64,000 bases of DNA from Candidatus Enterousia sp. (GTDB lineage Bacteria > Pseudomonadota > Alphaproteobacteria > Rs-D84), in NCBI GenBank assembly GCA_045654485.1, contig JAZONN010000023.1, positions 103,342 to 167,341 on the forward strand, given 5' to 3'. The notes beneath the pieces are model-generated. The model had not been told where the DNA came from. It saw only the letters and a program-made list of their open reading frames with translations, and did no database searches. A program made the translations under genes and the position numbers. Shown piece after piece: positions 3,474-42,431 of this stretch (position 1 is its first letter; each line of letters begins with the position of its first letter).

Positions 3474-4856
3474 TGAATAGGGTATTTTTAGGTCTGGTAT
3501 AGTAAAACAGGCGTCACCGTGGCAAAAATTTGTTTCGCCACTGAGATAGCAATCTGCTATTTCGTCTGAACCACCATCTGATGTACTGCCGGCGGGGCAT
3601 GGGTTTTGGGTGCCACCGTCACAGTAATATCCCGCATCGCATTTTTTCCATTCGGCGGTTAATGTCATGTCGTTGCCACCGGATATGTTTGAAATATTGG
3701 CGCCGGATTCATATATCTTATCTTTGTCAGAACAGCCATCGGTGCATTTCCATCCGGTGATATATTGTCCGGTGGTGTTGCATGTGTTGTCATATTTCAA
3801 GTAACAAGGTGTATCGTATGTGCAATCTTGTGTTTTTGTTGGGCATTTATTATCGGTGTCGTACGTGACCTTAAATTCTTTTGCTTTCCATACGGCGGTG
3901 AATGTAACATCGCCCAAGCTGTCTTCGGTCAGATATACTTCAGAGTCGATGCTAATTGTGCCGCCGGATTCAATTTGTTTTGGTGCGCCTCCGGGGCTGT
4001 GGACCAACAGTTTTCTGTTGGCTTTCCAATCGCCGGTGAAATCGTAACCTGTTTTTTGGGTAAAGCAGGGCGTTGCTTCTGGTATACCCTGTATATTGTC
4101 ATCTGTGCAATCGATAGTGGGGATTGTGTGTGCATTGATCAGTGTGAGTTTTGATAGAGAATTCCAACAATCAGATGAATTTGGTTCTGCGCAGTATTCG
4201 GCCGAATAAGCAATTAATGCGCAATCGTTACTGTCGGCATTTGTGGTGTTTGTGATATTGTCGCCGTAATAATATCCGTATTCGCAGTCGCAGTTTGTGT
4301 GGTCGGCGTTATGTGTGGCGTTGTTGCCACATTCTTTGCATTGTGTTTCAGTGGGTATGTTTTCGGCACTCACTGTAATTCCGTATGGATTGTTTGGGTC
4401 GCTTCCGTGTGTAAGTGAAAAAGATGCAGAATTTGGCTTATAGGTGTTGGTTAGACATTGGCGCACGTTATAAACCCATATATTATCATCAATTGCCAGT
4501 TCATAACCTGCGGGAATTGTTAAGTTTAGTTGACAGTTGTTTAAACTTGTTTTTCCGGTTTCGCCAATCCAGGAATAGAATTTGCTGCTAATGTTGGTGT
4601 GGATTTGCCATGGCCAAAGGCAGGTGCGACATTCTGTGCCTCGTATACTGCCAAGCAGCAGATCTTCAAGGGAGGGTGGTTGGTTTTGGTATGTGCCAGC
4701 AGGGCAGGCGACGCATTTGTTGTTGTAATATCCACAACCCGCTAAGCTGCACTTTTGGTCATGGTTTATGTAATATTGTTGACATTCGTCATTTGTTGCC
4801 GCCATGGACATGGTGGGGCAAAGTGATAAAAATAATGGTATTATATATTTTCTCAT
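3465..4856 (-). CDS. secreted Cys-rich protein with TNFR/ephrin-receptor-like CxxCPxGTY motifs and two Listeria-Bacteroides (Flg_new)-like repeats
   Basis: 463 aa with signal peptide MRKYIIPLFLSLCPTMSMA. Motifs CVACPAGTYQNQ and CDAGYYCDGGTQNPCPAGSTSDGGS are present. The repeat signatures are GYDFTGDW...FTAVWKA and YITGWKC...LTAEWKK. Confidence 0.6.
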   Translation of the reverse strand: MRKYIIPLFLSLCPTMSMAATNDECQQYYINHDQKCSLAGCGYYNNKCVACPAGTYQNQPPSLEDLLLGSIRGTECRTCLWPWQIHTNISSKFYSWIGETGKTSLNNCQLNLTIPAGYELAIDDNIWVYNVRQCLTNTYKPNSASFSLTHGSDPNNPYGITVSAENIPTETQCKECGNNATHNADHTNCDCEYGYYYGDNITNTTNADSNDCALIAYSAEYCAEPNSSDCWNSLSKLTLINAHTIPTIDCTDDNIQGIPEATPCFTQKTGYDFTGDWKANRKLLVHSPGGAPKQIESGGTISIDSEVYLTEDSLGDVTFTAVWKAKEFKVTYDTDNKCPTKTQDCTYDTPCYLKYDNTCNTTGQYITGWKCTDGCSDKDKIYESGANISNISGGNDMTLTAEWKKCDAGYYCDGGTQNPCPAGSTSDGGSDEIADCYLSGETNFCHGDACFTIPDLKIPYSSK

Positions 4857-23352: not shown

Positions 23353-23616
23353 TTATAATACGGGTTCGATTTTGCAGCTTTTAGCGACGTTAACTTTTAC
23401 TGCTGCTTCACAGAATTTTGCATGATTGACACAAATTGCAACGGCAGTATCTCCTTTTTTTAGTGCTTCAACCAATTCTTTGGCTTCGCTTGCTGTTACT
23501 GTGACTGGATCGACACCTTGGCAGACAACCATCATTTTGGGTTCCATACCAAAATCCCCCAGCATAGAACATGCGCTTAATCCAGCGATACTGCATACCA
23601 ATAAAAGTTTTTTCAT
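23353..23616 (-). CDS. small lipoprotein (87 aa)
   Basis: ORF 23353..23655, started at ATG 23616 (MKKLLLVCSIAGLSAC lipobox) with AAGGAGA upstream. Confidence 0.6.
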   Translation of the reverse strand: MKKLLLVCSIAGLSACSMLGDFGMEPKMMVVCQGVDPVTVTASEAKELVEALKKGDTAVAICVNHAKFCEAAVKVNVAKSCKIEPVL

Positions 23617-23638
23617 AAGTTTCTCCTTGTTTATTATG

Positions 23639-23860
23639 AAAAAATAAACCGCCAACAGGAAGGCGGTCGGGGAGTTCGTAAATCATAAGTTCAATGATTC
23701 TATTGCTTTTGGCTAACGTGCCTATTATATAACAACAGCTCCCCGACATTTTGTCAGGGCAATATAACGGTGCAATCCACACCATTTTGGATGACGATGC
23801 AAATTGCACCGGAACTTATGAGCTTACGACAGCCCGAGTCCAATTCCCATTGGATTCAAT
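23639..23860 (-). ncRNA. structured leader/ncRNA, copy A (paralogue of 40735..40996), ending in an intrinsic terminator
   Basis: Helix 1 pairs 23820-23812 with 23692-23684 (CATAAGTTC/GAACTTATG). Helix 2 pairs 23747-23739 with 23674-23666 (GTCGGGGAG/CTCCCCGAC). The terminator is AACCGCC-TTCCTGTT-GGCGGTT-TATTTTTT. Both helices covary with copy B. Confidence 0.45.
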
Positions 23861-23864
23861 GCCT

Positions 23865-23894
23865 AGTTTAACATTAATCGGAATAAAAGTCCAA
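23865..23894 (-). promoter_or_regulatory. candidate promoter of leader/ncRNA copy A
   Basis: On the minus strand, TTGGAC (23894-23889), 18-nt spacer, TAAACT (23870-23865). This is the same distance from the conserved GAATC block as in copy B. Confidence 0.3.
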
Positions 23895-23941: not shown

Positions 23942-24384
23942 CAAATCCGCGTGTTGTCACACGGTTTAACAAAAAACGCCGCACAAGGCGACGTTCTTTG
24001 TTAAATCTGGCGCATCGTAGCAAGGATTCCCTTGGCATAAATGCCTGTGGGGCATTCGTTAGCACTCGAACTGCACGATGTTTGTTCTCGTTTACTCATT
24101 GTCGAACCCTTTGGTCGGGTTCAAATCCGCGTGTTGTCACACGGTTTAACAAAAAACGCCGCACAAGGCGACGCTCTTTGTTAAATCTGGCGCATCCAGA
24201 AGGATTCCCTTGGCATAAATGCCTGCGGGGCATTCGTTAGCACTCGAACTGCACGATGTTTGTTCTCGTTTACTCATTGTCGAACCCTTTGGTCGGGTTC
24301 AAATCCGCGTGTTGTCACACGGTTTAACAAAAAACGCCGCATAACGCGACGTTCTTTGTTAAATCTGGCGCATCCAGAAGGATT
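23942..24384. repeat. tandem ~179-bp repeat (units 23942-24121, 24122-24299, partial 24300-24384), each carrying a copy of the tRNA-Arg(ACG) 3' end plus a terminator
   Basis: Periods are 180 and 178 bp, near-identical except in the pseudo-acceptor segment. The third unit merges into the intact tRNA. Confidence 0.9.
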
Positions 24385-24442
24385 CGAACCCTCAGTCTTC
24401 TGATCCGTAGTCAGATGCTTTATCCAGTTAAGCTATGGATGC
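24366..24442 (-). tRNA. tRNA-Arg, anticodon ACG (CCA encoded)
   Basis: Reverse complement is GCATCCA-TA-GCTT AACTGGATA AAGC-A-TCTGA[CTACGGA]TCAGA-AGACT-GAGGG TTCGAAT CCTTC-TGGATGC-G-CCA. Confidence 0.92.
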
Positions 24443-33672: not shown

Positions 33673-33759
33673 TTACTGTGATAAAGAATTTCGTCTTGCC
33701 TTAATGTGACGAAGTATGCCATAATATAAGCACAATTAGGATTGGATGAAAATAAAAAA

Positions 33760-36700
33760 ATGATAAAAAAATTAATTTCTTTTGCCTGTTGTCTTTTGCC
33801 AATGGGGGCGGGTGCCGCAGTTGTTGTTAATCCCGATGGTTCAAATGCGTTCGTTTCAACGACTCAAGATGCTTGGGTTAATGCCGGCGGTGCTAGTATA
33901 ACTATCAATTCGCCCCAGGTAATAAGTTTGGTGGCCGAAAATGGTTTTAATCTGTCCAATAATATGTATATTGGTGCCCAGAATGATCAAGGTTCACAAA
34001 ACGGTAATTTATATGTGCTTAACACGGTTGGTGGTGGAAATAATGCGTTTACCATTTCAAATGGTGGCACGGTGTCTGTTGGCGCAATGCTACAGGTTTT
34101 AGATGGTTGGACATTGGGATTACAGGGAGCGGGCAATAATGCGGCCTTTGATTTTGGTTCGATTGATAATGGTGGTAAAATTGTGGCGCAAAATGTTGCC
34201 GAATTTACATCAGGGTCGATTGAAAATAGTGGGCAGTTAGATTTGGATGTCGTTGGTAATGTGACAGCCGGTATGTTATCTGCAAATTCTGGTTCGTTTG
34301 ATATTAATGCGGGTGGCGATATTGAAATAGCGGGGGTTGTTAATTCGTCAAATTCTAATAATGCCATTGGTGCGACGGGTGGTGTTTTCTTTGGTAGTGA
34401 TGTACAAAGTAACGACGGGGTGTTGAATGTTGCAGCCGGTGGTGATGTTTCTGTTGGTGGTAATTTGTATCATTCTGGACAGAAGTTATCTATTGCGGGT
34501 GGTGCTTTTAACGTTGTTGGAACAATGAAAAACGATTTGCAAAATGGTGCAATTGTTTTGAATGTTAATTCGTTGGCTGTAAATGGCGGGACGGAATCAA
34601 CGTATTCTATGGTGAATAATGGTGATTTTTATGCTACGGTTTATGGTGATACTTATTTGGAATATGGTATGAATCTGACCGGTATGGGGAAAGACAACGA
34701 ATTTAGTTTGGATACCGGCACATTGACGTTTGGGGCCAATGCATCATCAGATACTTGGTTTTCGGCATTTGCAAATAAATTAAATAATTTTAATTTGGCG
34801 GTTCGTGATGGTGATATCGCTTTGGGTAACTATGCGGCCGGTGTTTTGAATGGTGCGGATGGCAATGTAAATGCAAATATGCAGTTATTGGCACAAAATG
34901 TATATGTGACAAATGTTCGGAATAATGGCGGTTCTTTGATTATCAAAGCCGCAGATTTGGATGATGGATATGATGTTGTTGCACCGGCGATGGCGACAAT
35001 GGTTGGAAATATTGTTGTGGGTGACCAAGTGGTGGGTGCGGCCGGTTCGAATACACAATTGATTGCATCAAATGCATTAAATGTCCAAGGCGGGGTTGCG
35101 AACAGTGGGGCAATGACATTGAATTCTAATTCTGTTGAAATTGTGTCCGGTGTTTCGAACAGCGGTGTGGGCGCCGTGTTAAATATAACGTCGTTAACCG
35201 ATAAATCGGGTACAGTGATCATTGATGGAAATTTAACCAATACAGATGGTTTGGTAAATGTTAATGCCAAAAATGTCGGGATTGGTGGAACGTTGGTTAA
35301 TAGCAGCGGTACTGTGAATGTGACCGGATCTGATTTGGATGGTGGTTCGGTTTATTTTGGTGGTATTAATGCCAATGGTGGCGTTATTAATTTAGATGCG
35401 CTGGCTGGAAATGTTGCGGTTAATAGTGCAATTATTGTGTCGAATGGTGCATTAAATCTTGGTGGTGGTATTCGTAACCTTGATGTTGATGGGGCGGTTC
35501 AGATTGATGGTAATTTAACCGCTTCGGCAAATGCTGCCGTTGGTTCGGGTGATGTGAATATTGCGGCAACTGGTACCGTGCCATTTGTAATGAACAGTTC
35601 GGCGGTTGTTGTCAAAGGTGATGTTGATGTCACAGATGATGCCGTTGTGCGTAATGTTCAATTGGATTCGTCTTTGGTGTCGGTTGAAGGTAATGTGGAT
35701 GTTGCCAATAAAGGGTATTTGACATTGGGGGCGTCGGGGAATTCTGCGGTGGTCAATGTTGGGCAAAGTGTTAATGTTTCAAATTCTGGGACATTGGAAA
35801 ATTTTGCCAATAACTTTACGGCGGGAACGATTGGTGGTAATGGGTTAATCATTACACACGGTGAAAATATAACTGCAAATGCGGGCGATATTGATATTGC
35901 AGGTGGTTTGGTGGTCGATTCGGCGCGTGCCGATTTGCCAACAACAGGATTGATAACACGCGATACAAATACTGTGAATATTACAACCACAGCCGCAGGT
36001 GCAGATATAAAATTTGTAACTGTGGACGTGGCATCGGGTAACACATTAAATTTTGACGCGGCAGATGCGTTAAATATAGCCGGAACGATTGTTAATTCGG
36101 GTAATTTAATGGCGGACGCCGGTGGGGTGATTGTTGGTGGTGCGTTGGATAATAAATCTGTGGCGGTGTTTGCAGGTCAAAATATCACGTTTGCGGGTGT
36201 GAATAATGTCGGCGATTTAGAATTGACGGCAACAGATGGTGATATCAATTTGTCAAATGTAACAACGTCTGGAGATTTGACGATTAATGGTAATGCGGGT
36301 GCTTTGATGTCGGCATATAACCAAACGGATGGCGTGACGGATATTAATGTCGATGCTGTTTCGGCACAAAGTTTTGTCGTAAATGGTGATGTGAACACCG
36401 TTGCCAACATTACGGCAAATACGATGACGGTTGATGGTAATGTGCGTGTGGCCGGTAATGTTTCCCAAGGTGGCGCAGATGCGATGCTTAATTTGTCAAT
36501 TGGTCAGTTAAATGCCAATAATTTAATGTTTGCCCAAAATTTTGATATTGTGACCGGCGATACCGATTATAATATTGGAACAAATGTTAGTGTTGATGGC
36601 AATATGAATGTTGCCGATACGGCGTCTGCATCGTTTGTCTTGGGTGGTGGATTTAGTGCGGCCGATGTAATAAATGCCGGTAATCTATACTTAAATGCGG

Positions 36701-38949
36701 GAAAGGGGATTAATTTCCAAGATGTGATTATTAATGATGGTACTTTGTCATTGGATTCCAATTCGATGCTTGTTGATGTTGTGTCTATGACAATCAATGG
36801 CGGAAATTTGGTTTTGGATGGTGCGGGCTTTGTAACGGATGGCGCAATTGATACGGGCGCAATGCTGTACCAACAGTATGTGTCTGAATTGGCATCCAAA
36901 GATATCAATGTTGTAGCCGATAAATATACAATGACAATGTCGGCATTAGATGTTGCAGGTGTTCATCAGCAAAGCGGTCAGATGACCATTAATACAAATT
37001 CTATTAATGTTGATGGTGATATTGTTGCGACGGATTTGCGCTTTGTGGCGCCAATTGATGATATGGGACAGACCATATGGCAAAATGTTAATGTTGGTGG
37101 CAATGTTTCTGGTGGTGTAGAATTTTTGGGACTAGAAAAAATGACGATTGCCGGTGATTATACTTTTGATGCAAACAGTAAAATTAATGCGGCGATTTTA
37201 CCATATGCAAATGGTTTAGGGCTGAATACAACCGATATTAACTATTGGGCAACGGTCAGTTTAAATGACGATGATACGTTGGGACGGATTACAAATGCGG
37301 ACGATGGTGCGGCGTTGATAACCGTTGGTGGTTCGTTCAAATCGGGTGTGGTTTATGATGATGCCGCGTTTGGTTTGAATAATACCGCGGCGCAATTGGG
37401 TGAAGGTCAAATTGGAATTTCTTTGTTCGATGTTGTTGACCAAGGTACGGCGATTTGGTTGTTGTATGCCGATAATGGTGTTTATAATTTCAGCCAATTG
37501 GAACAAATGCGTAATTTGAACGTGAATTTCTGTAATGCGGATGGTTCTATTTGTTATAACTATTTAGATATGTTGGATGGTAATAATGGAACGGCTGCAG
37601 ATGGGGATGAAGCAACCGATTTGCCGGCGTATGTATCTGTACGTGATACCGATTCGGATGGTACAGCGGATAGTTTATATGTCGTGTTTGATCCAAGATT
37701 TGGTGGGCCAGTTTTGTTGGATAATATGAAGATTCAGCCGATTGTTGCACGTGAATCATATCACACCACGGGTGAATATGTATCGGCCGGTGCATTGGAT
37801 GATTTGTTGGTCGGTCAGGTTCATAACAAGAAGTTCTTTAATCGTACACCGATTGAAATAATTCCATTGGTATTTGAAGATTCGAATATATCTGAAATGG
37901 CGAATGAATTGTATAATCGTATGGAATACTATGTTGAAACATCTGATGGTGCGCCGTTGGCACGGTTTAGTCGTCTATTCCAAGTGCGTGAATTGGAACA
38001 AATTGCCGGTGGTATTTCATTGAATGAACATACTTCGTTCCGTTCGTTCGAAGACCGTATGTTTGATGAATTTATATGGAATCGCAATCGCCAATTGAAA
38101 AAGGCATGGGTTGATGTGGATTATGGTATGTTCTATCAGAACATTGATGATGGTAAGCATACCGATGGAAATCGTTTTGCGATTTCGGGTGGATTTGATT
38201 GGCAAGAAACGGATACATTGGTTTTGGGATTGACGGGTCGTGTGTCCCATACCGCATCCGCGGCATCAGATAATATGGATTTAAGTTATGCCGACGTTGT
38301 GCAAACGGGCGACGTTAAAATCGATGTTGCCGATACAGATATTGCAGTTGGTGGCTATATGATGAAAATTTTGGGTGAAAAAACACGTCTTTATGGAAAT
38401 GCGTTTGCAGATTTGCACTTCTTTGATGTCAATCGTTTTCAAACCTATGTTGATCCAATTGACGGCGATGGTATGGCGTTCAGTTTGATTTCCGAATGGG
38501 GGTTAATGCACGATATATTAAATCAATATATTGTGGGTAATGCATATGCACGTATCGGATATAACTTTGGTTTTAGTATTAAAGAACAGACCAAAGAAGA
38601 AGATTATATGCATTTGAAATCAGATGGCTATATGATTTTGACACCGGGGTATTCATTGACCGCACAAAAGAAAATCTATCCATCTGCGTGGTTCCAGATT
38701 CGACCATATGCATCGGTTGGTGTGGAATATGACGTATTGGGTGCGCCGGATTATGCGGAATATAAATTCTCGGTTGCGGAACGTTTTACAAATTATGACA
38801 TCGATATTAATCCATTGTGGGCGAATATCGGTGGTGGTGTGGAAATGTTGTCTGCACATGGGTTACAGTTGGGATTGGATTATAGGTATCAATATAATCA
38901 AGATATCCAATTACATAACATCAAGGTATCAGGATCGTATAGATTTTAA
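33760..38949 (+). CDS. classical (type Va) autotransporter with a ~1400-aa repetitive passenger
   Basis: ORF from TTG 33742; ATG 33760 gives MIKKLISFACCLLPMGAGAA. Gly/Asn/Val-rich beta-helix-like repeats. The C-terminal ~280 aa is a beta-barrel ending ...IKVSGSYRF. Confidence 0.85.
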   Translation: MIKKLISFACCLLPMGAGAAVVVNPDGSNAFVSTTQDAWVNAGGASITINSPQVISLVAENGFNLSNNMYIGAQNDQGSQNGNLYVLNTVGGGNNAFTISNGGTVSVGAMLQVLDGWTLGLQGAGNNAAFDFGSIDNGGKIVAQNVAEFTSGSIENSGQLDLDVVGNVTAGMLSANSGSFDINAGGDIEIAGVVNSSNSNNAIGATGGVFFGSDVQSNDGVLNVAAGGDVSVGGNLYHSGQKLSIAGGAFNVVGTMKNDLQNGAIVLNVNSLAVNGGTESTYSMVNNGDFYATVYGDTYLEYGMNLTGMGKDNEFSLDTGTLTFGANASSDTWFSAFANKLNNFNLAVRDGDIALGNYAAGVLNGADGNVNANMQLLAQNVYVTNVRNNGGSLIIKAADLDDGYDVVAPAMATMVGNIVVGDQVVGAAGSNTQLIASNALNVQGGVANSGAMTLNSNSVEIVSGVSNSGVGAVLNITSLTDKSGTVIIDGNLTNTDGLVNVNAKNVGIGGTLVNSSGTVNVTGSDLDGGSVYFGGINANGGVINLDALAGNVAVNSAIIVSNGALNLGGGIRNLDVDGAVQIDGNLTASANAAVGSGDVNIAATGTVPFVMNSSAVVVKGDVDVTDDAVVRNVQLDSSLVSVEGNVDVANKGYLTLGASGNSAVVNVGQSVNVSNSGTLENFANNFTAGTIGGNGLIITHGENITANAGDIDIAGGLVVDSARADLPTTGLITRDTNTVNITTTAAGADIKFVTVDVASGNTLNFDAADALNIAGTIVNSGNLMADAGGVIVGGALDNKSVAVFAGQNITFAGVNNVGDLELTATDGDINLSNVTTSGDLTINGNAGALMSAYNQTDGVTDINVDAVSAQSFVVNGDVNTVANITANTMTVDGNVRVAGNVSQGGADAMLNLSIGQLNANNLMFAQNFDIVTGDTDYNIGTNVSVDGNMNVADTASASFVLGGGFSAADVINAGNLYLNAGKGINFQDVIINDGTLSLDSNSMLVDVVSMTINGGNLVLDGAGFVTDGAIDTGAMLYQQYVSELASKDINVVADKYTMTMSALDVAGVHQQSGQMTINTNSINVDGDIVATDLRFVAPIDDMGQTIWQNVNVGGNVSGGVEFLGLEKMTIAGDYTFDANSKINAAILPYANGLGLNTTDINYWATVSLNDDDTLGRITNADDGAALITVGGSFKSGVVYDDAAFGLNNTAAQLGEGQIGISLFDVVDQGTAIWLLYADNGVYNFSQLEQMRNLNVNFCNADGSICYNYLDMLDGNNGTAADGDEATDLPAYVSVRDTDSDGTADSLYVVFDPRFGGPVLLDNMKIQPIVARESYHTTGEYVSAGALDDLLVGQVHNKKFFNRTPIEIIPLVFEDSNISEMANELYNRMEYYVETSDGAPLARFSRLFQVRELEQIAGGISLNEHTSFRSFEDRMFDEFIWNRNRQLKKAWVDVDYGMFYQNIDDGKHTDGNRFAISGGFDWQETDTLVLGLTGRVSHTASAASDNMDLSYADVVQTGDVKIDVADTDIAVGGYMMKILGEKTRLYGNAFADLHFFDVNRFQTYVDPIDGDGMAFSLISEWGLMHDILNQYIVGNAYARIGYNFGFSIKEQTKEEDYMHLKSDGYMILTPGYSLTAQKKIYPSAWFQIRPYASVGVEYDVLGAPDYAEYKFSVAERFTNYDIDINPLWANIGGGVEMLSAHGLQLGLDYRYQYNQDIQLHNIKVSGSYRF

Positions 38950-38981
38950 AAAAATCCCCCATAAATTGGGGGATTTTTTTG
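38948..38981. terminator. bidirectional terminator shared by the two convergent adhesin genes
   Basis: AATCCCCC-ATAAATT-GGGGGATT, flanked by A- and T-runs. Confidence 0.75.
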
Positions 38982-38993
38982 TTTGTACAGATT

Positions 38994-40709
38994 TTAGAAC
39001 AATTTGAATTTGTAATTTGTTCCCGCACGGAATGTGACGTTGGAATCTGCCAAACCTGCGGCGGCATTTACAGACCAATTATCGGTTAAGCCCATTGCCG
39101 CACCCAATGCAACGGCTGATTGGCTGTTATAGTATCCGTAACCACCACCAACAGAAACTTCGCCTTTGGCAACATTAGATACCGCAACAGAAGACATTGC
39201 TGCTGCACTTGCGATACCAGCTGACAAATCTTCTTCTAATGCGTCGACTTTTTTGTCGGTGTAATTGTATGCCGAGTTCAAAGACATGCTGTTCTTGGCA
39301 TCAGCATATGCTTTTGCAGCCGATAATGTCATTTCATCGCCTGCGATACGATTTGCAACTTCTTCTTCGATTGCCGATGTGTTCAAAGCAATTTTGCCGT
39401 CTAATTCTGCTTCTGCGGCTGTTGCACGTGCAACTTCGGTTTCAATCGCTGTTTTATTTGCGGCAATATTTGTTGCGTTTGTTTCAATTGCGGCTTTGTT
39501 TGCTGCGATGTTTGTTGTATTTGTTGCAATATCAGACGTGTTTTTTGATACTGCACTATCAAGTGTATTAATCGCACCAGTGAACGTCGTTTCGTTGCCG
39601 GCAATTACACCTGTCAAAGCATCGGATACCGCATTTGAATTTGCTGATTCGATACCCAATGTATTATCAACCCATTGTTGTTTTTCTGCAAAGACCGCTT
39701 CTGCGTCTGTGATGCTTACTTTTTGATCTAATTCGGAACGGATTGCGCCGCCTTCGGCCAATGCACTATCAATTGCGTTATTGGCACCGTTGGTTATTGT
39801 TTCTAAAATTGGTGCATCATAAACGTCTTTGGCTGCTTGATACAGGTCGCCGTTTGCAACAAAGGCGTCTGCGGCGGCTTGTTGATTTGCCTGTGCTGCT
39901 GCCAATTTTGATGTTGCTTCACCAACAGTTGCAAAATAACCGTCTAATTCGGCAATTTTATCGCTGTCGTCATTAAATACGGTTTCTGCCTTGTCAAAAT
40001 TCGCTTTTTCTGTTGCCCAATTGGCCCCAGTGTCTGCAACAGCGGCATCAACGGCGGCTTTATCTGTATTATATGCGTCACGAACATCTGTTAGTAATTC
40101 AAACAAAGCGCCGGATGTTGGTTCTTCTTGCGGTATGCCATTTAATGTATATTGCGTACCGTCGGCAGACAATTTCAATGTTTGACCTTCGTATTCAAAC
40201 GAATACATAGAGCCATCAAATGTTGTGTCGGTTGCACCATTTGTAATGGTCACTTCTGTGCCACCTGCATAGTCAGACAAGGTGTGTGTTGCAACCATAT
40301 TTTGAGCGTTTTCGCCCAATACAACGGTTTCGCCAGCCCCGTTTACGTATGTATAGTTGTCACGAACAGCTGTTTCGCCGGCGGCAATTGTTTGGGTGCT
40401 AATGACATCGCCTGATGCTGTTGATGTTCCTGTGTATGCAGAAATGTCCGGTGTTCCATCTTGTAGAGTTTTTGTTGTGCCATCTACATCCGTATATGTA
40501 AAATCTGTTAATGACGGTTCTGAATTATACGCAATATCTGATGCGGTTGTTCCATCTGATCTGACGTAATTATATGTTGTATTTGCAACGCCGTCTGCAA
40601 CATTCATATCGTCGTTATACATGCCACTAAATGACACGTCTGTTGCGGCAATTGCTGGACACGACATGGTAATCGCAACCAGCGAAGTTAAAATAAAAGT
40701 TTTTTTCAT
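38994..40709 (-). CDS. trimeric autotransporter adhesin (YadA-like, type Vc)
   Basis: 571 aa with a signal peptide. Stalk repeats TNTTNIAANKAAIETNATNIAANKTAIE. C-terminal YadA anchor ...AAMSSVAVSNVAKGEVSVGGGYGYYNSQSAVALGAAM...FRAGTNYKFKLF. Confidence 0.85.
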   Translation of the reverse strand: MKKTFILTSLVAITMSCPAIAATDVSFSGMYNDDMNVADGVANTTYNYVRSDGTTASDIAYNSEPSLTDFTYTDVDGTTKTLQDGTPDISAYTGTSTASGDVISTQTIAAGETAVRDNYTYVNGAGETVVLGENAQNMVATHTLSDYAGGTEVTITNGATDTTFDGSMYSFEYEGQTLKLSADGTQYTLNGIPQEEPTSGALFELLTDVRDAYNTDKAAVDAAVADTGANWATEKANFDKAETVFNDDSDKIAELDGYFATVGEATSKLAAAQANQQAAADAFVANGDLYQAAKDVYDAPILETITNGANNAIDSALAEGGAIRSELDQKVSITDAEAVFAEKQQWVDNTLGIESANSNAVSDALTGVIAGNETTFTGAINTLDSAVSKNTSDIATNTTNIAANKAAIETNATNIAANKTAIETEVARATAAEAELDGKIALNTSAIEEEVANRIAGDEMTLSAAKAYADAKNSMSLNSAYNYTDKKVDALEEDLSAGIASAAAMSSVAVSNVAKGEVSVGGGYGYYNSQSAVALGAAMGLTDNWSVNAAAGLADSNVTFRAGTNYKFKLF

Positions 40710-40734
40710 TTTCTTTTCCCTTTTTCGTTTAATT

Positions 40735-40996
40735 AAACAAAAACCGTCAAAGGAATTTGACGGTCAGGGGGTTAAGAAAATCATATACTTGAATGACCCC
40801 CTTGGCCTTTACGCATGTGCGCTGTTGTATAGCCAAGGGCCCCCCGACCAGAAATCGGGTAGAATTTTTTGCAAAATAAAAAGCGCATCCGCGCTGTATT
40901 CTATATTTTGCACAGTCGGATAAAACAATGCCATAAAAGACACCGCAAGTATATAGGATTTCTTACGTCCCCGAGCCAACATCCCTGTTGATTCAT
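40735..40996 (-). ncRNA. structured leader/ncRNA, copy B (paralogue of 23639..23860), ending in an intrinsic terminator
   Basis: Helix 1 pairs 40954-40946 with 40791-40783 (ATATACTTG/CAAGTATAT). Helix 2 pairs 40849-40840 with 40771-40762 (GGTCGGGGGG/CCCCCTGACC). Terminal hairpin is ACCGTCAA-ATTCCT-TTGACGGT followed by TTTGTTT. An extra internal terminator-like hairpin lies at 40873-40895. Confidence 0.45.
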
Positions 40997-41001
40997 TTTT
41001 A

Positions 41002-41030
41002 ATGATATATTTTTAGAGACAAAAAATCAA
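41002..41030 (-). promoter_or_regulatory. candidate promoter of leader/ncRNA copy B
   Basis: On the minus strand, TTGATT (41030-41025), 17-nt spacer, TATCAT (41007-41002). Confidence 0.35.
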
Positions 41031-41089
41031 CATAAAAACAAATTATTTAACTGATTTCTAATGCCATTGTGTTATTTTCTTGACTTTTT

Positions 41090-41118
41090 TGTCAATTTAT
41101 TGTATAATACTGTCAACA
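41090..41118 (+). promoter_or_regulatory. consensus sigma70 promoter of rho
   Basis: TTGACT (41090-95), 17-nt spacer with TG at 41111-12, TATAAT (41113-18), 45 nt before the ATG. Confidence 0.6.
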
Positions 41119-41162: not shown

Positions 41163-42431
41163 ATGCATATTAATGAATTAAAGGCCAAGAGCCCACAACA
41201 ACTGCTGAAAATGGCAGAAGATATGGGAATTGAAAATCCATCGCAATTAAATGTACAGCAATTGCGCTTTGCGGTTATGCGTGTTTTTGCCGCAGATAAG
41301 AAAGTGACTTTAATCGGTGATGGTGTGTTGGAACGTATGCAAGACGGATTTGGTTTCTTGCGTGCGCCGGAATCTAATTATTTGGCGGGGCCGGATGATT
41401 TGTACGTGTCGCCAAATTTGATTAAAAAATATGGTTTGAAAACCGGTGACTATGTCGAAGGACAAATCCAAGCGCCGGCCGCAGAAACAGAAAGATATTT
41501 TGCACTTGAAACAATCGAACGTGTAAATGGTGATAATCCGGAAAAATTAAAACATCGTGTTTCTTTTGATGATATGACGCCATTATATCCAGATGAACAA
41601 TTGAAAATGGAAGTGGCGGATGACAAAGACAAAGGTCGTAATTTGTCGGCACGTGTTATCGATTTGATTTCGCCAACCGGTAAAGGTCAACGTTCTTTGA
41701 TTGTTGCGCCGCCACGTACCGGTAAAACCGTTATGTTACAGAATATTGCGCACAGTATCGCAACAAATTATCCGGATGTAAAATTAATCGTATTATTGAT
41801 TGATGAACGACCCGAAGAAGTTACCGATATGCAACGCAGCGTAAAGGGCGAAGTTATTTCATCGACCTTTGATGAACCGGCCGCACGCCATATCCAAGTT
41901 GCAGAAATGGTTATTGAAAAAGCCAAACGATTGGTCGAAGCCGGTCAAGATGTTGTTATCTTGTTGGATTCTATTACACGTTTGGGACGTGCATATAATA
42001 CCTGTGTTCCATCCAGTGGTAAAGTTTTAACCGGTGGTGTCGATGCGTATGCGTTGCAAAGACCAAAGCGTTTCTTTGGTGCGGCACGTAATATCGAAGG
42101 TGGTGGTTCTTTGACAATTATTGCAACTGCATTGGTTGATACGGGTTCAAAAATGGACGAAGTTATCTTTGAAGAATTCAAAGGTACGGGTAACAGCGAA
42201 ATCATTTTGGATCGCAAATTGTCCGATAAACGTGTATATCCGGCGATTGATATCACCAAATCCGGCACACGCAAAGAAGATTTGTTGGTTGGTAAAGATA
42301 TATTGTCAAAAATGTATGTTTTGCGTCGTATCATTAATCCAATGGGCACATTAGAAGCCATGGAATTCTTGTTGGATAAACTGCGTTTGACGAAGACGAA
42401 TAGTGATTTCTTTTCGTCCATGAACCAGTAA
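41163..42431 (+). CDS. rho: transcription termination factor Rho
   Basis: 422 aa. [26 protein letters not shown]-loop [10 protein letters not shown], and ...RKEDLL... near the C-terminus. Confidence 0.97.

Follow-up and report, generated by a model that had tools for sequence, protein, structure and literature searches.

The sRNA-Xcc1 family (RF02221) groups small RNAs (sRNA) that are found in prophages, integron cassettes and plasmids. In the integron cassettes of Xanthomonas the RNA is placed directly upstream of symE, in the APSE phages it is upstream of an ORF6N gene, and in a Xylella prophage it adjoins C4 and isrK. In enterohaemorrhagic Escherichia coli (EHEC) it is an abundant, 89-nt and poorly translated RNA. 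The element described here is a leader RNA with a core of this type. Two copies of it, A and B, lie on the minus strand of a 64,000-nt stretch of DNA from Candidatus Enterousia sp. (contig JAZONN010000023.1, positions 103,342 to 167,341; hereafter the window). Judged from the comparison of homologous sequences, the leader is a real, conserved and folded RNA that is initiated at its own promoter and runs to a terminator just ahead of surface-protein genes. It probably switches these genes on or off. The reading favored here, with a probability of about 0.55, is that it acts in cis as a transcription attenuator or riboswitch-like leader of the mRNA for surface or secreted proteins.

Riboswitch and attenuator platforms resemble the leader in two respects. 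A promoter-proximal conserved structured domain is followed by an intrinsic terminator and then by the Shine-Dalgarno (SD) sequence, and one strand (G2 in the leader) has two conserved and mutually exclusive partners, one of these pairings overlapping the terminator stem. The leader has two of the parts expected of an attenuator: a covarying structured domain of the 5' untranslated region that begins at the transcription start site (TSS), and an intrinsic terminator between this domain and the gene. An earlier reading of the window, made from the letters alone (the sequence-only reading), had already pointed to a riboswitch- or attenuator-like layout, and this is supported. On the other hand, the pairing that would act as antiterminator is a long-range pseudoknot and shares just the lowest 2-4 nt of the terminator, the genes encode exported proteins and not a metabolic pathway, and no Rfam 15 riboswitch class matches the leader. 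The phage immunity RNAs (P1/P7 c4, P4 CI and N15 CA; Rfam C4 and isrK) act by antisense pairing to target sites in their own transcript. They are similar to the leader as small structured RNAs that open an operon leader, before antirepressor-type genes in their case, and in the pairing of the 5' region with a segment inside the structured core. The leader differs from them in that no target-site repeats were identified and neither Rfam C4 nor isrK matches it.

The leader RNA is 215-260 nt long and runs from 23858 to 23639 in copy A and from 40996 to 40735 in copy B. Direct reading of both copies recovers, in identical order, all the sequence blocks that had been noticed beforehand. A degenerate 26-nt pattern of the 5' block (TGAATCNANNGGGANNTNGNCTCGGG) has exactly two matches in the window and none in 100 shuffles, and the same counts are obtained with a gapped 3' pattern (GTCGGGGNG..TCATT..TATGATTT). 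No third copy was found in the window by nhmmer and two covariance models. The copies share 74% mean column identity (MAFFT), and each is far more stably folded than its dinucleotide shuffles (z = -7.4 for A and -5.2 for B). The two long-range helices of the sequence-only reading are complementary in both copies. Its helix 1, here named P4, is CAUAAGUUC/GAACUUAUG in copy A and AUAUACUUG/CAAGUAUAU in copy B, whereas its helix 2, here named H2, is GUCGGGGAG/CUCCCCGAC and GUCGGGGGG/CCCCCUGAC, respectively. The proposed arm order (1, 2, 1', 2') is real, H2 is a true pseudoknot, and the covariation claimed from two copies extends as compensatory changes across 24 homologues.

The homologous loci are labelled L001-L031, and L017b and L029b are second, divergent copies on L017 and L029. 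From 5' to 3', the family contains a -10 box, the hairpin P1 with its GGGA loop, the strand G1 (GGG or GGGG), the 5' arms of P3 and P4, the hairpin Pa and the motif AUCCG. The middle part consists of the long helix Pc capped by Pb, the C-rich strand C1, the G-rich strand G2 (GGUCGGGGnG), the hairpin HP1 with a UAUAnAA loop and the motif GGUCAUU. Subsequently come the 3' arms of P4 and P3, one nucleotide, the strand C2 (CnCCCyGACC) and the terminator. Pa and Pc/Pb are each absent from some members. The central hairpins reappear when each sequence is folded singly. The 9-bp hairpin of the sequence-only reading (CGGTGCAAT/ATTGCACCG) is present in copy A, where the 5' arm of Pa is joined to the 3' arm of Pb. 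It is a lineage-specific fold that is not conserved, as Pa and Pb are separate hairpins elsewhere in the family.

Covariation was scored on an alignment of 22 sequences (A3), with H2 written as a pseudoknot. In this alignment 95.0% of the cells are paired and 30 of the 54 pairs are changed on both sides. These values are not attained in any of 500 shuffles, and the paired fraction falls to 39-49% when the 3' partners are shifted by 1-3 columns. All helices that align well are supported by compensatory changes. Changes on both sides affect 4 of 8 pairs in P1 (97.7% paired), 7 of 9 in P4 and all 8 outer pairs of HP1, whose UAUAnAA motif is invariant or nearly so. For H2, when the 3' domain is aligned with the divergent copies and the E. 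coli Xcc1 added, 5 of 10 pairs are changed on both sides and 97% are paired. Helices that are kept by compensatory double changes indicate selection on RNA pairing. Several other readings of the conserved sequence were tried and rejected. Protein coding on either strand is contradicted by indels that are not multiples of three and by the compensatory nature of the substitutions. A leader peptide does not fit, since other members have GUG, UUG, ACG, AAG, CUG or GCG in place of the 5' AUG of copy B. A CsrA-type reading of the GGA in the P1 and Pb loops fails because the Pb loop is not conserved. The RCCA after H2 is not tRNA-like: type B leaders have UCA and the Rfam consensus differs.

The G2 strand has two mutually exclusive partners: the upstream C1, with which it forms the hairpin Pd, or the distal C2, past P3 and P4, with which it forms the pseudoknot H2. 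The usual set of strands is UCGGGG (G2), CCCGA (C1) and CCCCyGA (C2). In the same order, L017b has GGUCAGGAGG, CUCCUGACC and CCUCCUGACC, and L029b has GGUUGGAGU, ACUCCAAC and ACUCCAACC, so that in each of these divergent copies all three strands are altered together. Pd is more stable than shuffled upstream sequence (z < -1.3) in 21 of 23 copies, with a mean z of -2.6. The coordinated change of the three strands and the stability of Pd therefore argue that two exclusive helices sharing one strand are both under selection. The calculated energies are -16 to -21 kcal/mol for H2 and -9 to -16 kcal/mol for Pd. H2 and the base of the terminator stem overlap by 2-4 nt, and what they share is the terminal 3-4 nt of C2, GACC (AACC in L029b). 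The terminator has an energy of -10 to -14 kcal/mol when intact and of -3 to -6 kcal/mol without GACC (the outlier, L025, has -8.8), and the removal of GACC also detaches the stem from the U-run. These results agree with the mutually exclusive folds abutting a terminator that the sequence-only reading had proposed. The terminators have GC-rich stems and, in nearly all members, a U-run of 4-7; a scan finds those suspected in the window at 23668 to 23647 (copy A) and 40765 to 40742 (copy B), each with its U-run. The GGGG of G1 can also pair with C2 (P2) in most members. P2 was considered as an anti-antiterminator and is not relied on, as its few changes are uncompensated and the pairing is weaker in the divergent copies.

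The -10 box ends 6-8 nt before P1 (GAAUC) in 22 of 22 copies and is a perfect TATAAT in 12, and most of the 22 have a TTGnnn hexamer 17 nt upstream of it. In both A and B the distance to GAAUC is 7 nt, which confirms the equal spacing of the promoter-like hexamers remarked upon earlier. In copy B a consensus scan gives the promoter as TTGATT-17-TATCAT, ending at 41002. At the other end, the first start codon lies 15-29 nt past the element in most copies, with the SD between. The gap to the ribosome-binding site of copy A, previously put at about 20 nt, is shorter: the SD at 23623-23628 is only ~10 nt past the U-run, and the ATG is at 23616. Because the start codon and the SD are so near the U-tract, there is no room for a separate promoter, and consequently the downstream gene depends on the leader transcript. 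Signal peptides are present in 18 of the 22 distinct downstream products (N-termini read by eye). The products include a YadA-anchor adhesin, an autotransporter with Pmp repeats, lipoproteins, Cys-rich secreted proteins and a DUF285 protein. The gene after copy B, first described as YadA-like, does encode a YadA_anchor domain.

A leader placed in this way could also modify the polymerase itself, by processive antitermination or by recruiting a protein, like HK022 put, Bacillus EAR or the LoaP-dependent leaders, so that the terminator and the long genes after it are read through. Processive antitermination systems are known to have the same order of promoter, large conserved RNA, intrinsic terminator and long surface-structure genes as seen here, and put and EAR are likewise structured leader RNAs before the terminators of long surface-structure operons. 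The invariant unpaired motifs of the leader (the GGGA loop, AUCCG, UAUAnAA and GGUCAUU) suggest a binding surface. However, the leader has no sequence or structure similarity to put or EAR and matches neither EAR nor other Rfam antitermination RNAs, and some of its genes are very short (87 aa), so that processivity is no issue. Alternative pairing is not a feature of put or EAR, and this explanation, which is unlikely, would leave the conservation of both Pd and H2 without a reason.

In the favored reading, that of a cis-acting attenuator, transcription would start from a promoter of the sigma-70 type, located 6-8 nt ahead of P1. The initial 215-260 nt would then fold into P1, the closing stack of P3 and P4, the peripheral Pa and Pc/Pb, and an Xcc1-like core in which H2 is placed on HP1. 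When Pd is formed, C2 would be free, the full terminator would assemble and transcription would stop, releasing a discrete RNA of ~250 nt. On the other hand, an effector at the conserved junction, be it a ligand, a protein or a physical cue, would stabilize H2 and sequester the base of the terminator. The polymerase would then read into the gene, whose SD follows 10-25 nt on. That the alternation of Pd and H2 controls termination, and in this direction, is what we infer from the exclusive pairings. Enterousia belongs to the uncultured order Rs-D84 and, like other bacteria of this order, has genomes of ~0.75-1.0 Mb. That several copies of a leader with some ten helices are retained in such small genomes points to an important role in regulation. 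As the genes concerned are those of the cell surface (adhesins, autotransporters and lipoproteins), the leader may govern attachment to the host or to other microbes.

The relation to sRNA-Xcc1 is restricted to the 3' third of the leader. At the gathering threshold, a scan of the window with Rfam gives four tRNAs only. In E-value scans, the sole credible signal is sRNA-Xcc1, on H2, HP1 and the 3' hairpin. Copy B scores 38.3 bits and five relatives score 35.1-39.3 bits, which does not reach the gathering score of 53, whereas the positive control, the sRNA-Xcc1 of E. coli EDL933, scores 69.1 bits. Copy A has no match to RF02221 at E<=10. The cmscan alignments are full length (model positions 1-87); the outer helix of the model corresponds to H2 and its hairpin 1 to HP1. 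Reciprocally, R2, a covariance model of the 3' domain of the leader, matches the bona fide E. coli copy (L008 5605-5708, minus strand) over the full model with 32.8 bits and an E-value of 1e-4 to 2e-4. The sequence-only reading could not assign the element to any known RNA family. This holds for Rfam families at threshold, but not for the 3' third, which is distantly related to sRNA-Xcc1.

In both RNAs the outer helix, GGUCGGGnGG/CnCCCGACC, is stacked on an inner hairpin whose conserved internal loop is (U)AUAcAA. A 3' hairpin CCGCC...GGCGG comes directly afterwards, and then an SD and a same-strand gene. In E. coli Xcc1, the CCGCCAG...CUGGCGG that precedes the SD matches in layout the CCCGACCGCC...GGCGGUU of the leader family. 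The 9-10 bp outer helix around a hairpin 1 with an AUACAA-type loop is thus found in the leader, whereas the second local hairpin (HP2) of the nested three-way junction is missing, and the cmscan posterior probabilities are low in that part. The place of HP2 is occupied by GGUCAUU and by the 3' strands of P4 and P3, whose partners lie upstream in the 5' extension. Since these strands replace hairpin 2, the outer helix becomes a pseudoknot. The sub-threshold score and the missing hairpin mean that the leader family is not a strict member of sRNA-Xcc1, and the kinship of the 3' third means that it is not wholly unrelated to known RNAs.

The leader family adds to the Xcc1 core a 5' extension of ~150 nt (P1, G1, P3, P4, Pa and Pc/Pb), the competing hairpin Pd and a true U-tract terminator; E. 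coli Xcc1 is without the 5' domain and without a real U-tract. It is chromosomal, placed before genes for surface proteins and confined to Rs-D84/Enterousia-like gut Alphaproteobacteria. The leader is best classed as a greatly enlarged new variant that has the sRNA-Xcc1 core as its basis. Apart from the distant likeness of the core, no description of the family was found in Rfam 15 or in the literature searched. The E. coli EDL933 copy (NZ_CP008957, ~1394604-1394707) lies 41 nt upstream of the gene of the antirepressor Ant, with a hairpin and an SD between. Matches to sRNA-Xcc1 are present in 101 Stx-phage records (933W, VT2-Sakai and others); among the 25 records listed the match is unannotated in 20 and named sRNA-Xcc1 in only one. 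The Stx-phage layout suggests a cis-leader role for Xcc1, a role that was not found discussed in the literature searched.

Tentatively, the leader may represent a new class of riboswitch-like attenuator, in which a large pseudoknotted sensor with an Xcc1 core gates adhesin, autotransporter and lipoprotein genes in response to a host or metabolic signal. By extension, the widespread sRNA-Xcc1 would itself be primarily a cis-acting leader module. The leader is the first structural context that places the poorly understood Xcc1 core inside an evident switch, and it provides a testable hypothesis for the Xcc1-type RNAs of phages, integrons and plasmids.

Several observations weigh against an attenuator. 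In summed typical nearest-neighbor values, the state with Pd, P2 and the terminator is ~9 kcal/mol more stable than that with H2 and a truncated terminator. The terminating state being so favored, read-through would need an extra factor that stabilizes H2 or the conserved junction. The overlap of H2 with the terminator is merely 2-4 nt, and therefore both could coexist as a coaxial stack. The E. coli Xcc1 shares the layout of H2 plus hairpin in spite of having no real U-tract, and sRNA-Xcc1 has been called a trans-acting sRNA. In about 4 of the 22 copies the downstream gene encodes no signal peptide or is ~100 nt away, the start codon being ~100 nt from the element in L014 and L031. Finally, the downstream genes are tied by export alone, and no ligand, protein partner or evident metabolic logic connects them.

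The main rival explanation draws on some of the same points. The leader would then be a stand-alone gene for a trans-acting sRNA, an enlarged homologue of sRNA-Xcc1 with a constitutive terminator and leaky read-through, and Pd and H2 would be folding intermediates or structural features. Its promoter, its strong terminator, the greater stability of the terminator-forming state and the homology of the core with an RNA that is abundant in EHEC and has been called trans-acting are all compatible with this. An ARN-like AAGAAA stretch and the U-tail presumably resemble the features of Hfq-binding sRNA. However, the gene depends on the leader transcript regardless, as the interval from the U-tract to the SD is too short for another promoter, and types A and B of the leader are each retained with their own orthologous gene. 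P4 is wholly different between the paralogues, so no shared seed region is apparent, and the coordinated change of three strands suits a switch better than a static fold. A stand-alone sRNA is the less probable of the two interpretations.

The hairpin without U-tract that lies right before the SD in the E. coli relative could also indicate a leader that acts only after transcription, for example as a thermometer, as a processing site or through translation or RNA stability; the apparent terminator would then serve chiefly as a structural or stabilizing hairpin. Both C-rich strands, C1 and C2, look like anti-SD sequences, the SDs being GGAG or GGGA. This is quite improbable, because a U-run of 4-7 follows the hairpin in nearly all members of the family and the SD is outside every conserved helix. 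On inspection, the match between helix 1 and the start region in copy A is absent from copy B and L013; mimicry of the start codon by helix 1 was rejected on the same ground.

The 24 distinct members that were recovered come exclusively from Candidatus Enterousia, from metagenome-assembled genomes (MAGs) of related uncultured gut Alphaproteobacteria or from gut metagenomes. When 185,579 species genomes were scanned for the 5' signature, 10 loci were obtained. They all belong to Candidatus Enterousia or to MAGs of unclassified gut Alphaproteobacteria, and the samples are of gut or faecal origin (sheep, roe deer and mouse among others). The 3' signature, scanned for in metagenomes, added 14 loci, which are more diverse. 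Pattern scans of IMG/VR with both signatures had no matches, and therefore the family is not considered phage-borne; BLASTN with copies A and B as queries had no match among 50,697 phage records either. Two covariance models were built, R1 and R2, the model of the family being trimmed to 220 positions and R2 covering the 3' domain only. The covariance models revealed two divergent, smaller copies, at L017:6102-6308 (plus strand) and L029:~4327-4500 (minus strand), 1-4 kb from the first copies. One of them has no Pa and the other no Pc/Pb, and HP1 is shrunk to a simple hairpin with a AAUAUAUUGAAUAAG loop. To judge from these two copies, the minimal core may comprise P1, G1, P3, P4, Pd/H2, HP1 and the terminator, and a genome may contain several copies.

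Type A leaders (window copy A, L010 and L013) precede a small lipoprotein gene, whereas type B leaders (window copy B, L009, L011, L012, L014-L018, L027 and L028) precede the gene of a trimeric autotransporter. Each type stays with its orthologous genes across species, and the remaining members precede other genes. The loci L001-L007, from ruminant gut metagenomes, encode the identical 87-aa lipoprotein and have leaders near-identical to copy A, with two point differences only; this near-identity gives little information on covariation. In L004, L005 and L007, a U to C change in the 5' arm of P4 (CAUAAGCUC) produces an uncompensated C.A mismatch. In L001, a C to U change in C2 (CUCCCUGAC) retains the pairing as G.U.

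The presence of two copies each in the window, L017 and L029, before variable surface-protein genes, could recall a mobile repeat, similar to a miniature inverted-repeat transposable element (MITE), or a recombination cassette of surface-protein genes with no RNA function. The sequence-only reading had named MITE-like behavior as grounds for giving up its own proposal, and this was not borne out: copies in different species occupy orthologous sites and begin at a constant distance from the promoter, although target-site duplications were not searched explicitly. Moreover, compensatory double changes preserve the helices, the paralogues are merely ~74% identical (mean column identity), IMG/VR has no copies, no copy in the window lies outside a leader position and the paired arms are internal. 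A mobile repeat is thus very improbable.

Table 1. Positions of the leader elements and of the genes that follow them, in window coordinates.
Feature	Position	Strand	Remark
Copy A -10 box TAAACT	23865..23870	-	7 nt before first conserved base; inferred TSS ~23858-23859
Copy A P1 hairpin GAAUCCAAU-GGGA-AUUGGACUC	23836..23857	-	GGGA loop invariant in the 22-sequence alignment
Copy A G1 strand CUCGGGC	23832..23838	-	conserved GGG; possible P2 partner of C2, no covariation support
Copy A P3 5' arm UCGUAAG	23823..23829	-	partner 23676-23682
Copy A P4 5' arm CAUAAGUUC	23812..23820	-	helix 1 of the sequence-only reading; partner 23684-23692
Copy A Pa hairpin CGGUGC-AAUUU-GCAUCG	23795..23811	-	by homology
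Copy A Pb hairpin GGUGU-GGAUU-GCACC	23769..23783	-	by homology
Copy A C1 strand CCCUGAC	23753..23759	-	5' arm of local hairpin Pd with G2
Copy A G2 strand GUCGGGGAG	23739..23747	-	5' arm of H2 and 3' arm of Pd
Copy A HP1, Xcc1-type inner hairpin	23700..23738	-	UAUAUAA internal loop; covariation
Copy A P4 3' arm GAACUUAUG	23684..23692	-	covariation
Copy A P3 3' arm UUUACGA	23676..23682	-	covariation
Copy A C2 strand CUCCCCGAC	23666..23674	-	3' arm of H2; last 3 nt (GAC) also base of terminator stem
Copy A intrinsic terminator GACCGCC-UUCCUGUU-GGCGGUU + UAUUUUUU	23639..23668	-	terminator scan
Copy A SD AAGGAG and 87-aa lipoprotein gene	23353..23628	-	SD 23623-23628; ATG 23616
Copy B whole element	40735..41007	-	
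Copy B -10 box TATCAT	41002-41007	-	
Copy B P1	40973-40994	-	
Copy B G1	40967-40975	-	
Copy B P3	40959-40965 with 40773-40779	-	
Copy B P4	40946-40954 with 40783-40791	-	
Copy B Pa	40926-40945	-	
Copy B Pc/Pb	40871-40911	-	
Copy B C1	40853-40859	-	
Copy B G2	40840-40849	-	
Copy B HP1	40799-40839	-	
Copy B C2	40762-40771	-	
Copy B terminator	40735-40765	-	
Copy B SD AAAGGGAAAAG and 571-aa YadA-anchor trimeric autotransporter gene	38994..40723	-	SD 40713-40723

The surroundings of both copies are chromosomal, with housekeeping genes (rho, enolase, thymidine kinase, M48 peptidase and LpoB), and are not those of a prophage. After copy A, same-strand open reading frames (ORFs) with short gaps encode the 87-aa lipoprotein, an outer-membrane beta-barrel protein, a 434-aa protein, a DUF1425 protein and LpoB; to judge from this layout, they would form an operon. 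A tRNA gene is found within a few hundred nucleotides upstream of, or diverging from, the leader promoter in the window (tRNA-Arg ACG, 24366-24442, minus strand) and in several unrelated loci (L021, L022, L023, L031 and L005), which may simply reflect compact genomes.

In copy B (40882-40895, minus strand) and its equivalents, the Pb hairpin GCGC-GGAU-GCGC, with UUUUUAUUUUG after it, is scored as terminator-like within the leader. The U-run after Pb doubles as the 3' arm of Pc, and an early internal termination or a pause site is conceivable. A perfect 12-bp palindrome, GTTTAATTAAAC, lies at 40727-40738, between the U-run and the SD of copy B; it occurs once in the window (0.01 expected). The stretch TTTAATTAAAC is kept in most type B leaders elsewhere (L009, L012, L015-L018, L027 and L028). 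The palindrome could be an operator or a small AU hairpin that involves the U-tract.

The rho gene (41163-42431, plus strand) diverges from copy B, and the shared intergenic region contains a strong promoter-like site, TTGACT-17-TATAAT, at 41080-41108. On the other side, a 1735-aa ORF with no Pfam domain (33742-38949, plus strand) converges on the adhesin gene, and no leader of the family precedes it. Weak Rfam matches of Thr/Phe-leader type at 38892-39017, between this ORF and the adhesin gene, probably correspond to a bidirectional terminator.

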